Shown: positions 2,436 through 19,188 of the stretch, piece after piece
Numbering within the stretch: the stretch's first letter is position 1
Layout of the letters: the number at the start of each line of letters is the position of its first letter
Source of the DNA: Phenylobacterium haematophilum
GTDB lineage: Bacteria > Pseudomonadota > Alphaproteobacteria > Caulobacterales > Caulobacteraceae
Direction of reading: 5' to 3'
Length of the DNA: 24,000 nt
NCBI RefSeq assembly: GCF_014196295.1
Contig: NZ_JACIDK010000001.1
Coordinates: 204,785-228,784, forward strand
The notes under the pieces: generated by a model
Told to the model about the DNA's origin: nothing
The model's input: only the letters and a program-made list of their open reading frames with translations
Database searches by the model: none
Position numbers and translations under genes: made by a program

Positions 2436-2453
2436 AAGTCTTGGAATGCAAGC
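2436..2453 (+). promoter_or_regulatory. 18-bp island box copy 1 (AAGTCTTGGAATGCAAGC)
   Basis: Matches MAGT-N6-ATG(C/A)AAGY. Lies in the 108-bp divergent gap between the thiolase (start 2371) and the DapB-like gene (start 2480). Confidence 0.65.
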
Positions 2454-2479
2454 TAACGAAAAGTGAGGCGAGGACGGGC

Positions 2480-3502
2480 ATGACGCGCAAGGCCAGAGTG
2501 GTGCAATGGGCGACCGGATCGATGGGCAAGACCTGCCTGCGCGCGGTGCTGGATTCCCCGGACTGCGAGCTCGTCGGGCTGTTCGTCTACAATCCGGCAA
2601 AGGCTGGCGTGGACGCAGGCGAGATCGCGCGGCGGCCGGCGACCGGCGTGCTGGCGACCAGCTCCATCGACGAGATCCTCGCCCTCGACGCCGACGTCGT
2701 TCTGCACTGCCCGATGCTGGCCAGCCCCTATGACGGCCACGACGGCGACGTGAAGCGCCTGCTCGAGAGCGGCAAGAACGTCATCTCGATCAACAACTAC
2801 TTCCACCCCTGGGCGCTCGGCGAGGCCTATGCGCAAGTCCTGGAAGCCAGCGCGCGCAAAGGCGGGGCGACCCTGGCCGGCGTCGGCGTCAATCCGGGGT
2901 GGGCGGCGGAGAAGGTCGCCGCCGCCGTGGCCGGCGTCTCCCTTCGGCTCGACCACGTCGCCACTACCGAAGTCATCGACTGCTCGGGCATCCCCAACGC
3001 CGCCTATGTGTTCGGCGCGCTGGGGATGGGCGCAGATGCCGCCGGCCTGGACCTCAAGGACGGCCCGCTCGCCCGCACCTTCACCGACATGTACGCTCAG
3101 TCGGTCGCGGCCCTGGCCGGCAAGCTGGGGATCGAGCTCGACGCCGTCGAGTCCGACCACGCCGTCACCCTGGCCGACCAGGACCTCGACGTCCGCGCCG
3201 GCGTCGTGCGGGCCGGAACCGTCGCGGCGACCACCTGGCGCGTCCACGGCCTGGCCGCCGGCGTTCGCCGCATCACCCACGCGGTCAACTGGGTCATGGA
3301 CATGAGCCTGCCGGCCTTCGCCGGCAAACCGCATTGGGAGATCGAGCTCACCGGCCTGCCCGGCGTGCGTCTCTCCATGGATCTCACCGAGACCAACGAA
3401 CCCGGCGTCCGCACCAAGCCCGAGCAGTACGCGGTGGCGGGAATGGTCATGGCCGCGATCCCCAAGGTGGTCGCCGCGCCGCCAGGAATTTGGCGCGGGT
3501 AG
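2480..3502 (+). CDS. NAD(P)-binding oxidoreductase, dihydrodipicolinate-reductase (DapB) N-terminal-domain family
   Basis: The track ORF starts at 2441. I prefer ATG 2480 (MTRKARVVQWATGSMGK...) with GAGGACGGG just upstream. It has a glycine-rich Rossmann N-terminus (WATGSMGK) followed by an ~340-aa DapB-like/amine-dehydrogenase-like body. Confidence 0.8.
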   Translation: MTRKARVVQWATGSMGKTCLRAVLDSPDCELVGLFVYNPAKAGVDAGEIARRPATGVLATSSIDEILALDADVVLHCPMLASPYDGHDGDVKRLLESGKNVISINNYFHPWALGEAYAQVLEASARKGGATLAGVGVNPGWAAEKVAAAVAGVSLRLDHVATTEVIDCSGIPNAAYVFGALGMGADAAGLDLKDGPLARTFTDMYAQSVAALAGKLGIELDAVESDHAVTLADQDLDVRAGVVRAGTVAATTWRVHGLAAGVRRITHAVNWVMDMSLPAFAGKPHWEIELTGLPGVRLSMDLTETNEPGVRTKPEQYAVAGMVMAAIPKVVAAPPGIWRG

Positions 3503-3571
3503 ACGGCGGAACTGATTGCAGCGCTTGGAATCTAACGCCAAGTTTCGCGCCGGTCGGAGTTGGAGGGCGTA

Positions 3572-4111
3572 ATGCTGGGCGAAGTGATGGCTGTGGCGTG
3601 CTTCATCTCGCCCAATCCCTCGCCGATGGAGTGGATGGCGAGCGGGCCGCCCGCGAAGCTGGCCGATCTGGAAGCTGCGGCCTCCGACGTCCCCGCGATC
3701 AGGCGCGTGGCGCGCGCGATGGACGGCGACATCGCCTTCGTCCGCTACGAGCTGGGCCCGTCGCTAACCTACGGCGACTGGATGGCGTTTCTGCACAAAG
3801 CTGAGGGCCTGGACGTCCTGCGCTCCACGCCGAGCCACATCGTCCCGAGCTGCCCCGACGGCCGGGCCGGGGATCTGGACGACAGCCATGCGGCGCCGCT
3901 GATCGTCGGCGTGGTCGGTGCGCCTGCAAAAACGTCCGCCGTGATCCGCGAACTGGGATGGCCCGGTACGGCGGTTCGATTGGCCGATGGTCAGAGCGCC
4001 GTCAGGTTTGAGCCGCCCGTCGATCAGGACGATCGCTATGCGCAGTTCGTCGCCCGCGCCGCCAAGGACGCCTGGCCGGAGGTGAAGGTCGTCCTGTTGC
4101 GCGCGGACTGA
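3572..4111 (+). CDS. hypothetical protein (no family recognised)
   Basis: The track ORF begins at TTG 3560. ATG 3572 follows GGAGGG (3563-3568), and ATG 3587 is also possible. GC3 is high and the composition is protein-like rather than an Arg-rich shadow. It has slightly more A/T-ending codons than its neighbours. Confidence 0.55.
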   Translation: MLGEVMAVACFISPNPSPMEWMASGPPAKLADLEAAASDVPAIRRVARAMDGDIAFVRYELGPSLTYGDWMAFLHKAEGLDVLRSTPSHIVPSCPDGRAGDLDDSHAAPLIVGVVGAPAKTSAVIRELGWPGTAVRLADGQSAVRFEPPVDQDDRYAQFVARAAKDAWPEVKVVLLRAD

Positions 4112-4127
4112 TCGCGGGGGAGGACGG

Positions 4128-17679: not shown

Positions 17680-19056
17680 TCAGTGATCGGACGCTTCGGC
17701 GGTCTCTTCCTGCGAGGCGCGGACATAGGGTTTGATCGCCGCGATCAGCGCCGCGACCCCCAGCGGCAGCACCACGGCGGTGACGATGGCCACGGCGACG
17801 CCGATCTTGGCCGGATCCTTCAGCCAGTGGTCGCTGATCAGCGCCACCGCCGTCGGCCCGACCGTGAAGGCGACGATGTTGCCGATCAGCAGGTAGAGCG
17901 CGATCACCCGCGCCCGCACCCGGTTGGGCGTCACCGCCTGGAACGAGACCGCCGGCAGGCCCTGGGTCAGGCCGAACCCCAGGCACATCAACGCCAGCAT
18001 CGCGGCGGCGAGCTCGCCGCTCGCCATCATCGGCGCCGCCAGGGCGAAGGGGAAGGCGCCGAGCGCGCCGATGATCGCCACGCGCAGCACCGCGTCCTTG
18101 CGGCCGGCGGCGGCGAAGCGGTCGGTCCACCAGCCGCCGATCAGCACGCCCAGCGTGCTGCCGACCAGCAGTATGGTCCCGTAGACCGCCCCGACCTTGC
18201 CGACCGGCCAGCCGTGCGCGCGCATCAGGAAGGCCGGCGCCCAGGTCAGGTAGGCGGCGATCACCACCCCGACCAGCGAGTAGCCGGCCGCCAGCAGGGT
18301 GAACACCAGCCAGCGGCGGCGCAGGTAGGGACCGAGCGGGGCCGAGGGCGCGGCGCCCGCGCCCTGGCGGGCCGGCTCGCGCAGGAACAGCATCGCGGCG
18401 ATGAGCACCGGGCCGGGCAGGCTGACCAGCATGAAGGCGATCTGCCAGCCCTTCAGCGTCCCGACCAGCGGCAGGCTGACGGGCGGGGCGGTGCTGGCCC
18501 ATTCGATCACCGCGCCGCCGATGATCAGCGCCATGCCGACCCCGGCGATCGAGCCGATCGCATAGATCCCCATGGCCCGCGCCCGCTTGGCCGGCGGGAA
18601 GGAGTCGGCGATCATCGAGTAGGCGGCCGGCGAGAGCCCGGCCTCGCCGATCCCGACGCCGACGCGGGCGGCGAACAGCGACACGAACGACCCGGCCAGA
18701 CCGCAGGCGGCGGTCATCGCGCTCCACACCCCGATGCTGACCATGATCAGGTTGCGGCGCGAGCCGCGGTCCGCCAGCCAGGCCAGCGGGACGCCCATCA
18801 GCGTATAGAACAGCGTGAAGGCCAGCCCGCTCAGCAGGCTGAACTGGGTGTCGGTGATTCCGAGGTCGCGGCGCAGCGGTTCGACCAGCAGGGTCAGGAT
18901 CTGCCGGTCGACGAACCCGACTGCATAGGCGGCCATCAGCACCAGCACCATGGTCCAGGCGCGGGCCGGGGCCGGCCAGTCGGCCGCGGCGGCCGCGGGC
19001 GATCCCAGCGCCGAATCCTTCGGTCGGGCGGCGTTCGACATCGTGCTTTGAAGCAT
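17680..19056 (-). CDS. MFS transporter
   Basis: 458 aa with ~12 hydrophobic spans. Contains GFVDRQIL and the MFS loop motif AWLADRGSRRN. The start is ATG 19056 or ATG 19041. Confidence 0.92.
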   Translation of the reverse strand: MLQSTMSNAARPKDSALGSPAAAAADWPAPARAWTMVLVLMAAYAVGFVDRQILTLLVEPLRRDLGITDTQFSLLSGLAFTLFYTLMGVPLAWLADRGSRRNLIMVSIGVWSAMTAACGLAGSFVSLFAARVGVGIGEAGLSPAAYSMIADSFPPAKRARAMGIYAIGSIAGVGMALIIGGAVIEWASTAPPVSLPLVGTLKGWQIAFMLVSLPGPVLIAAMLFLREPARQGAGAAPSAPLGPYLRRRWLVFTLLAAGYSLVGVVIAAYLTWAPAFLMRAHGWPVGKVGAVYGTILLVGSTLGVLIGGWWTDRFAAAGRKDAVLRVAIIGALGAFPFALAAPMMASGELAAAMLALMCLGFGLTQGLPAVSFQAVTPNRVRARVIALYLLIGNIVAFTVGPTAVALISDHWLKDPAKIGVAVAIVTAVVLPLGVAALIAAIKPYVRASQEETAEASDH

Positions 19057-19114
19057 TCCCGGGCCCCCGAATGGCGCGGCCGTCTGCGCGGCGTTCGTCC
19101 TACCGTCGCCTCGG

Positions 19115-19132
19115 AAGTATCAAAATGCAAGC
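19115..19132 (+). promoter_or_regulatory. 18-bp island box copy 6 (AAGTATCAAAATGCAAGC)
   Basis: Lies in the 201-bp divergent gap between the MFS and TonB-dependent receptor genes. It is the first of a direct pair 56 bp apart. Confidence 0.7.
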
Positions 19133-19136
19133 TAAT

Positions 19137-19173
19137 CTGATGCGACTTTCAAAAAAGGACTTGTGCGCATCAG
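19137..19173. promoter_or_regulatory. 8-bp perfect inverted repeat CTGATGCG-N21-CGCATCAG between the two boxes
   Basis: The spacer contains GACTT-tcaaaaaag-GACTT. The right arm overlaps the first 3 nt of box copy 7. Confidence 0.4.
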
Positions 19174-19188
19174 TTCATTAATGCAAGT
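19171..19188 (+). promoter_or_regulatory. 18-bp island box copy 7 (CAGTTCATTAATGCAAGT)
   Basis: Second box of the pair. It ends 69 nt upstream of the receptor ATG. Confidence 0.7.

Follow-up and report, generated by a model that had tools for sequence, protein, structure and literature searches.

A 24-kb stretch of DNA from Phenylobacterium haematophilum (contig NZ_JACIDK010000001.1, positions 204,785 to 228,784; hereafter, the window) carries a catabolic gene island whose promoter gaps contain copies of an 18-bp box. We consider it very likely that this box is the operator of a regulator. Judging from the sequences compared here, it is probably an asymmetric operator through which a protein made of two fused HxlR-type domains (the tandem-HxlR protein) represses the island, about 11 transcription units in all. 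An initial annotation of this DNA had described the box as the cis-element of one dedicated regulon and, as far as an operator is meant, this description agrees with our results: the box is kept across genera, is absent from the flanking housekeeping DNA and travels with one regulator family.

An 18-bp box in the intergenic DNA of the island

Using a gene map corrected by means of third-position GC content, Pfam and external gene calls, we found that the intergenic part of the window amounts to 1,926 nt, or 8%. The relaxed pattern GT-N6-WTG[CA]AAG matched nine times in the window, and all nine matches are intergenic, with none in coding DNA. The boxes stay intergenic after the gene-start corrections, as had been claimed for the copies first described. 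In 2,000 dinucleotide shuffles of the intergenic segments the same pattern gave a mean of 0.029 matches, with a maximum of 2, and eight scrambled control motifs gave no intergenic match. Because shuffles of the same segments and scrambled motifs both stay near zero, the enrichment is not a by-product of AT-rich spacers. We also scanned the window with a position weight matrix (PWM) built from 112 unique sites. With a cut-off of 12 bits, it detected the nine strong copies, a degenerate tenth one and a reverse-strand echo of box 6, and nothing else. No match of at least 12 bits was found beyond 19188, in line with the statement that the right-flank genes carry no box.

The eight copies listed in the initial annotation are all present in the sequence at their coordinates, but the count was too low: a ninth copy on the minus strand (19145-19162, AAGTCCTTTTTTGAAAGT) had been overlooked, as had the degenerate tenth at 15690-15707. 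The pattern proposed at that time, MAGT-N6-ATGMAAGY, is exact in only five of the eight, although five matches still compare with 0.01 expected. Positions 3, 4, 12, 13, 15, 16 and 17 had been called invariant, which is true for the nine strong copies, and the bare TGCAAG hexamers reported within genes were located at 10456, 11574, 5238 and 1589. As for the claim that the boxes mark divergent gaps, all five such gaps have at least one box, but the copy at 6293 lies between two co-directional genes. Altogether, the island counts around 11 transcription units in six gaps. The boxes are listed below, where L numbers designate related loci from other genomes, 27 of which were retrieved through ACS3, an acyl-CoA synthetase (ACS) gene of the island.

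Box 1: 2436..2453, plus strand, AAGTCTTGGAATGCAAGC, 30.4 bits; divergent gap between a thiolase gene (GTG 2371, minus strand) and a DapB_N-like gene (ATG 2480); orthologous copies in L004, L028, L035 and L038.
Box 2: 5408..5425, plus strand, CGGTTCGTAAATGCAAGT; divergent gap between the SCPx-type thiolase gene (start 5357, minus strand) and the first short-chain dehydrogenase gene, SDR1 (ATG 5441); orthologs in L001, L002, L009 and L014.
Box 3: 6293..6310, minus strand, TAGTCTTTATATGAAAGC (as read on the minus strand), 32.7 bits; co-directional gap from SDR1 to SDR2 (ATG 6333); identical 18-mer in L001, L002, L009 and L014.
Box 4: 11948..11965, plus strand, AAGTTCGATTATGCAAGT; distal box in the gap between the limonene-epoxide-hydrolase-like (LEH)/SnoaL genes and the NMO gene; LEHb starts at 11903.
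Box 5: 12006..12023, plus strand, AAGTTGCGATTTGCAAGT; proximal box ahead of NMO (ATG 12083).
Box 6: 15626..15643, plus strand, CAGTTTCAAAATGAAAGT; gap between ACS3 (start 15540) and the oxygenase gene; a conserved island in the unbiased alignment.
Box 6b: 15690..15707, minus strand, degenerate, TAGTTTCAATTTGCCAGT, 20.8 bits, found by the PWM scan; in a motif-blind alignment of the orthologous gap, AACTGGCAAATTGAAACTAAA is kept in seven loci.
Box 7: 19115..19132, plus strand, AAGTATCAAAATGCAAGC; gap between the MFS and TonB-dependent receptor genes, the box closest to the MFS start (19056, minus strand).
Box 8: 19145..19162, minus strand, AAGTCCTTTTTTGAAAGT (as read on the minus strand), 27.0 bits; same gap as box 7.
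Box 9: 19171..19188, plus strand, CAGTTCATTAATGCAAGT; 69 nt ahead of the receptor ATG at 19258.

Two gene starts were corrected for this list. The SCPx-type thiolase was moved to 5357, and the oxygenase, whose longest open reading frame (ORF) begins with TTG 15677, was given the conserved ATG 15767 behind a GGGAGAG ribosome-binding site, which leaves the 90 nt between 15677 and 15766 as promoter DNA carrying the degenerate tenth box. Boxes 8 and 9 form an inverted pair 8 nt apart, and this spacing is retained in the closest Phenylobacterium loci.

The wider consensus of the box is wT-MAGTYY-NN-WWW-TGCAAGY-nA, or ACTTGCAW-N6-ACTK on the opposite strand. It is not self-complementary, so the box is asymmetric and has no inverted repeat, which bears out the remark that it is not a clean palindrome. 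The distance between its arms (N6) is constant at all sites, and it occurs in both orientations relative to its target genes. Hence, the orientation in which it was first written, towards the plus-strand genes, does not define a fixed direction of transcription.

Conservation of the box across genomes

Boxes are present in about 25 loci. They recur at orthologous gaps in Phenylobacterium and Brevundimonas, and in the related cluster of L016, a Rhodospirillaceae metagenome-assembled genome (MAG). At orthologous gaps the arms are constant and the six spacer bases drift, as illustrated by the variants found in the oxygenase gap across loci (CAGTTTCAAAATGAAAGT, CAGTCTCGAAATGAAAGT, CAGTTGCGAAATGAAAGT, TAGTCTCTAATTGAAAGT and AAGTCTCCAAATGAAAGT), and in unbiased alignments the boxes stand out as islands of conservation. 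At the level of aligned sequences, fixed arms around a drifting spacer are the classic footprint of a protein-binding site. The alignment of orthologous loci proposed in the initial annotation thus gave the result expected from a functional element, with the box kept at orthologous promoter gaps across genera. Searching with the tandem-HxlR gene retrieved further loci with boxes in their promoter gaps, in Kineobactrum salinum, Govanella unica, a Steroidobacter MAG, a Congregibacter-like contig and one further genome of 3 Mb, all of them carrying versions of the same island gene set.

The most distant clusters (L040 at 14709 and 18636, L041 at 12726 and L022 at 17744) have a box that reads AGTCTTGCAATGCAAGT. 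Its inner part, CTTGCA-A-TGCAAG, is a perfect 6-1-6 palindrome or, in another reading, a tandem TGCAA-TGCAA; this palindrome is limited to a minority of distant sites. This form could be an ancestral, more symmetric operator.

A tandem-HxlR protein accompanies the box

We clustered the unassigned ORFs of all loci. The most widely shared one encodes the tandem-HxlR protein, a single chain of ~312-314 aa with two HxlR-type winged-helix domains (two PF01638 stretches). Its halves are 30% identical over 132 residues without gaps, and each of them continues into an invariant, zinc-ribbon-like H-x2-C...C-x2-C motif (H115/C118/C128/C131 and H276/C279/C289/C292). The AlphaFold model of the protein is confident, with a predicted local distance difference test score (pLDDT) of 88.8 and a predicted TM-score (pTM) of 0.86, which implies, for the modelled structure, that the two halves are packed in a defined way.

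Each half matches PA1607, PA1374, YodB and HypR. The best matches in both sequence and fold are PA1607 (2f2e) and PA1374 (4gcv), two HxlR-like structural-genomics entries from P. aeruginosa, with a TM-score relative to the target of 0.8 and a match that covers part of the C-terminal extension. Unlike the tandem-HxlR protein, they are single-domain proteins of ~145 aa, not fused, and their entry titles give neither function nor DNA site. Structure and literature searches revealed no solved structure of the fused form and no paper on it, and literature searches on tandem HxlR and on the motif string gave nothing relevant. A database search returned 355 relatives of the protein, from Alpha- and Gammaproteobacteria.

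Of the 27 loci retrieved through ACS3, 12 carry the gene, usually directly after ACS3, in the slot held by a TetR-family gene in the lineage of the window. Members of its cluster also appear to lie on the same contigs as L001, L002, L004, L006, L009 and L014. In two sister genomes, L035 (Root77-like) and L038 (LjRoot164), the leftward gene order of the island is thiolase, ACS1, acyl-CoA dehydrogenase, small ORFs and, at its edge, the tandem-HxlR gene, followed by an unrelated kdp operon. This places the regulator gene ~5 kb beyond position 1 of the window. Examples of the protein are WP_183769525.1 (P. haematophilum/LjRoot164) and KQW72088.1 (Root77). The only contig with an exact match (L028) ends 138 nt past ACS1, and no regulator start occurs within that stretch. 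In L038, the tandem-HxlR gene has a strong box (AAGTCCATTTTTGAAAGC) 96 nt upstream, and a box with one mismatch (TAGTATCATTTCGCAAGT) lies just ahead of the ribosome-binding site of the acyl-CoA dehydrogenase gene. We found no box in 10 kb of the kdp flank of L035 and L038.

Two further sets of loci serve as natural controls for this co-occurrence. Sphingomonad loci L010, L017 and L019 have the enzymes (56-73% identity), no tandem-HxlR gene within reach and 0-1 box matches, weak and spurious-looking. In Brevundimonas, the regulator gene sits in one cluster (L012 and L024), and another cluster from the same genome or MAG (L007 and L008) has boxes as well. Both cases point in the same direction as the co-occurrence, namely that the box tracks the tandem-HxlR regulator. 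Comparing the cluster between alpha- and gammaproteobacteria, we saw no other regulator gene recur. The box sites are genetically linked to a PF01638 regulator gene, which lies outside the window itself. The inverted repeat that a symmetric HxlR/DUF24 homodimer would read was not found, the box being asymmetric and the candidate a fused pseudo-dimer of diverged halves.

Apart from this, a Phenylobacterium MAG (L031, SCVD01000026.1) has three tandem-HxlR paralogs, at 713-1660, 10001-10942 and 18443-19393. They are 37-79% identical to the window-type protein and all lie inside one 21-kb version of the cluster, in which position 2 of several boxes is G rather than A (AGGT, GGGT and TGGT). These may be paralog-specific operator variants.

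Apparent overlap of the box with core promoters

To relate the box to promoters, we read the sequence around 126 unique box sites and looked for TAnnnT. The right arm of the box on the opposite strand is TTGCAW, and TAnnnT follows 16-18 nt downstream in 36 of the 126 sites (29%), in comparison with none at 13-15 nt and one at 19-21 nt. This agrees with a CTA peak at offsets 6-7. At these sites, the ribosome-binding site and start codon of the divergent gene come ~25-45 nt further on. A second relation was observed for the left arm, with a TTG peak at offset 21. The putative promoters of the window are the following; transcription is predicted to begin near 5388 (SCPx-type thiolase, minus strand), 6303 (SDR2), 11928 (LEHb, minus strand), 12017 (NMO), 15605 (ACS3, minus strand) and 15728 (oxygenase).

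SCPx-type thiolase: TTGCAT 5418-5423, 16 nt, TAGGCT 5396-5401, minus strand; box 2, ~30 nt to the ribosome-binding site.
SDR2: TTGCGT 6269-6274, 16 nt, TAGCTT 6291-6296, plus strand; overlapped by the reversed box 3.
LEHb: TTGCAT 11958-11963, 17 nt, TAGCCT 11935-11940, minus strand; box 4, followed by a ribosome-binding site.
NMO: TTGACG 11982-11987, 17 nt, TAAGTT 12005-12010, plus strand; the latter is the left arm of box 5 plus the preceding T.
ACS3: TTTCAT 15636-15641, 18 nt, TATCTC 15612-15617, minus strand; box 6, leading to ACS3 and the TetR gene.
Oxygenase: TGGCAA 15692-15697, 18 nt, TATCAT 15716-15721, plus strand; box 6b, then ATG 15767.

Ahead of NMO, the arrangement TTGACG-N17/18-TAAGTT or TAGGTT is kept from Phenylobacterium to Brevundimonas (L001-L003, L005, L008, L018 and L031), and box 5 would there cover the -10 and the start site. 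At the SDR1, DapB-like and dehydrogenase genes, 5-26 nt separate the end of the box from the ribosome-binding site or start codon. Since the same box seems to overlie core promoters in three different registers, it looks like a repressor's operator, unlike a dedicated promoter element or an upstream activator site.

The initial annotation had seen no match to sigma-70, sigma-54 or EcfG promoters. Partners for sigma-54 or extracytoplasmic function (ECF) sigma factors were indeed not found, but the statement holds only in part for sigma-70: TTGCAW has its TAnnnT in the 36 sites mentioned above and TAAGTT has its TTGACG at NMO, with the other sites lacking a partner. The box thus appears to be interwoven with ordinary core-promoter hexamers. 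Several other readings were discarded. A sigma-54 promoter (TGGCAC-N5-TTGCW) was rejected, as no GG is conserved across the ten window sites within the 10 nt that precede ACTTGCAT; nor did we see an enhancer-binding protein among the annotated cluster genes. An ECF-type reading of GAACTT showed no consistent partner elements. The plus-strand 'GCTA' upstream of the box, taken as a Caulobacter-type -10 with the box at +1, has no consistent -35 upstream, and its CTA keeps a constant distance of 16-17 nt from the opposite-strand TTGCAW, the divergent gene start following ~30 nt on. Finally, a structured RNA was dismissed, as Rfam gave no match at gathering score in the whole window and the box occurs in both orientations relative to the downstream genes.

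Between SDR1 and SDR2, the consensus scan detected a weak hairpin (6269-6293; 11 pairs, only 4 of them G-C) followed by CTTTCATATA. It overlaps the putative SDR2 promoter and the start of box 3, whose T-rich arm could double as the SDR1 terminator tail.

A repressor model and its alternatives

We propose that the tandem-HxlR protein is a pathway-specific factor that would control the whole island via the box. One of its heads would read the right arm, WTGCAAGY; the left arm, (T)MAGTY, which lies roughly one turn of the helix away, would be read by the other. With two DNA-reading heads in one chain that have diverged to 30% identity, the operator need not be a palindrome; fusing diverged domains would remove the need for symmetry, which fits a bipartite, asymmetric box. 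The right arm, as TTGCAW, would be the -35 hexamer of several promoters, and elsewhere the box would cover the -10 and the start site. Because the box seems to be built into core promoters, bound protein should exclude RNA polymerase, and the outcome would be repression until a pathway compound releases the protein. Binding of the protein, promoter hexamers, transcription starts, sign of regulation and inducer are all deduced from sequence in this proposal. A broader claim is that the single-chain tandem-HxlR protein may represent an undescribed one-component regulator class, acting as a covalent pseudo-dimer on an asymmetric 18-bp operator to control an island widespread in Alpha- and Gammaproteobacteria; on present sequence comparisons, we regard the case for and against it as evenly poised.

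Some observations weigh against repression by this protein. Its gene is not in the window, and its presence in this genome is deduced from near-identical sister genomes. Co-localisation fits a box that follows the regulator as well as a box and a regulator that both follow the island, except in the sphingomonad and Brevundimonas cases, and a box directly upstream of the regulator gene exists only in some lineages. A scan for E. coli-type consensus promoters and terminators was uninformative, with a consensus from E. coli and a genome of 69% GC. Moreover, the characterised HxlR/DUF24 proteins are homodimers that bind inverted repeats (PMC3351151), a symmetry that the box does not have. Lastly, HxlR and HypR of B. 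subtilis are activators (PMC3351151), which makes the sign of regulation uncertain.

Hence, one could argue that the tandem-HxlR protein does bind the box, but as an activator, at or beside the -35, recruiting RNA polymerase when the pathway substrate is present. Besides the precedent of its B. subtilis relatives, the -35-like hexamers within the box (TTGCAW, TTTCAT and TGGCAA) are imperfect, which is common for activator-dependent promoters. However, at the putative promoters the box would span -37 to -20 or -11 to +7, a typical position for a repressor, while class I and II activators sit further upstream, as does the activating site of HypR at -53 to -95 (PMC3351151). The spacers of 16-18 nt also differ from the 19-20 nt of promoters with MerR-type spacer-binding activators. 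We therefore think that activation is unlikely.

Another possibility is that an unlinked regulator, encoded elsewhere in these genomes, binds the box, and that box and tandem-HxlR gene are associated through their shared membership of the island. The association is indeed one of co-localisation, and several loci have no box at the regulator gene itself. Such a coincidence is improbable given that no other regulator gene was seen to recur across the alpha- and gammaproteobacterial clusters and that the box goes missing in the sphingomonad loci, where the tandem-HxlR gene was not found.

Slightly less probable still is that the box is no regulator site, and reflects a lineage-specific promoter architecture, either with two overlapping hexamers on opposite strands (TAAGTY as -10, TTGCAW as -35) or with recognition by an alternative sigma factor. 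Although each arm looks like a core hexamer and, in a sizeable fraction of sites, has its partner at the right distance, independent promoters would not need a fixed N6 between them, and the TAnnnT partner, as said, is restricted to 29% of the sites. The three registers relative to the putative promoters do not fit either, nor does the confinement of the box to the island, when the flanking genes also need promoters. Regarding alternative sigma factors, no sigma-factor gene was seen among the annotated cluster genes and there is no consistent GG 10 nt upstream of GC, as sigma-54 needs.

The TetR-family protein encoded at 12997-13572, named in the initial annotation as a binder to be tested, is the only regulator encoded inside the window and belongs to the ACS3 operon behind box 6, but it is very improbable as the binder and was rejected by phylogenetic co-occurrence: its ortholog is found only in L001, L006, L009 and L014, and boxes with the same arms persist without it in other Phenylobacterium, Brevundimonas, Rhodospirillaceae, Govanella and gammaproteobacterial loci. 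TetR dimers normally read inverted repeats, which this asymmetric box does not offer, and PDB and NCBIfam searches with the protein gave no close characterised homolog. Repression by the tandem-HxlR protein is thus the explanation that we retain.

Gene content of the island

The source DNA is Phenylobacterium-like (Caulobacterales), with ACS3 97% identical to that of Phenylobacterium sp. LjRoot97 and of MAG PB1.003. The island extends over positions 1-21480 of the window and, in sister genomes L035 and L038, ~5 kb further to the left. Its enzymes include three acyl-CoA synthetases, two thiolases (one of SCPx type) and two short-chain dehydrogenases, together with a DUF1295 (steroid-reductase-like) protein, a DapB_N-like dehydrogenase, two SnoaL/limonene-epoxide-hydrolase-like proteins, an NMO/FabK-like flavoprotein and an RPE65-family (carotenoid or lignostilbene-type) oxygenase. 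It also encodes an MFS transporter, a TonB-dependent receptor and the TetR-family protein. Counting the left extension, an acyl-CoA dehydrogenase is added and the acyl-CoA synthetases are three or four. The island may be a breakdown route for apocarotenoids or other isoprenoids. The same gene set recurs in Phenylobacterium, Brevundimonas, Govanella, Kineobactrum, Steroidobacter and Congregibacter-like genomes, and a literature search for the gene cluster found no paper describing the island.

No pathway role has been assigned to three ORFs at 9498-11100, namely DUF6886, an ORF of 146 aa and a Pro/Ala-rich one of 182 aa. At least the 146-aa ORF and DUF6886 are found only in the closest relatives (L001, L006, L009 and L014), the 182-aa ORF has homologs in L001, L006 and L009, and all three are missing from L002 and L003. 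With this restriction to the closest relatives, the SDR2-ACS2 operon seems to have received a lineage-specific insertion. Of the TetR_C_28 type, the TetR gene is likewise limited to the window-type lineage and is preceded by a box-free interval of 342 nt (13573-13914). The matching interval holds a 96-aa ORF in L001, L009 and L014 and a 231-aa ORF in L001 and L009, and it looks like a zone of recent insertion or deletion. Between the oxygenase and MFS genes, a small ORF of 86 aa (17330-17590, minus strand) has no Pfam match and is conserved at 74-89% in L001, L006, L009 and L014, and at 47% in L002.

Relation to known regulators and significance

The repetition of one short motif across the divergent gaps of a catabolic island of the lipid or isoprenoid type is also known from KstR and KstR2, TetR-family repressors of actinobacterial steroid-catabolic clusters that bind palindromic operators and are released by a pathway intermediate. 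Compared with them, the system described here differs in protein fold (theirs is that of TetR), in phylum and in the symmetry of the operator, and the motifs share no sequence similarity. Regulators of the AraC/XylS/MarA type have two DNA-reading heads in one polypeptide that recognise an asymmetric site of ~17-20 bp. Most of them are activators, with binding positions that precede or overlap the -35. Here the likeness lies in two conserved blocks about one helical turn apart with an AT-rich middle, and in an orientation relative to the promoter that matters. The fold is unrelated, though, and no AraC-family gene was seen among the annotated cluster genes.

The closest relatives belong to the HxlR/DUF24 subfamily of MarR-type regulators, with which the tandem-HxlR protein shares the PF01638 winged-helix fold and the character of a local one-component regulator. 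Members such as YodB, HypR and HxlR of B. subtilis and QsrR of S. aureus are single-domain homodimers of ~110-130 aa that bind inverted repeats, and HypR has a 7-2-7 site, GTATCAAAATTGATAC (PMC3351151). Their sites, of ~16-20 bp, are located at or close to the promoters of a small number of target operons, among which the regulator's own gene can be included (PMC3351151). The tandem-HxlR protein differs in having two diverged, fused domains, each with its His/Cys3 motif, in the asymmetric site and in the large catabolic island that it would target. Known members sense electrophiles through an N-terminal Cys, whereas no conserved N-terminal Cys is among the invariant columns of the tandem-HxlR alignment.

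A transcription-factor operator is an element of a known kind; what sets this one apart is an unusual, asymmetric design, an undescribed fused regulator and the uncharacterised pathway that they would target. If our interpretation is correct, the ten operators and ~11 transcription units would make up a regulon map for a catabolic island that recurs in root-associated Phenylobacterium, in Brevundimonas and in marine gammaproteobacteria. It would also provide the first DNA target for the fused two-domain branch of HxlR proteins, and would show, in a natural case, how an operator can escape palindromic symmetry once the halves of a MarR-type dimer have fused and diverged. Finally, the regulator-operator pair would offer a handle to find the inducer and, hence, the substrate of the pathway.

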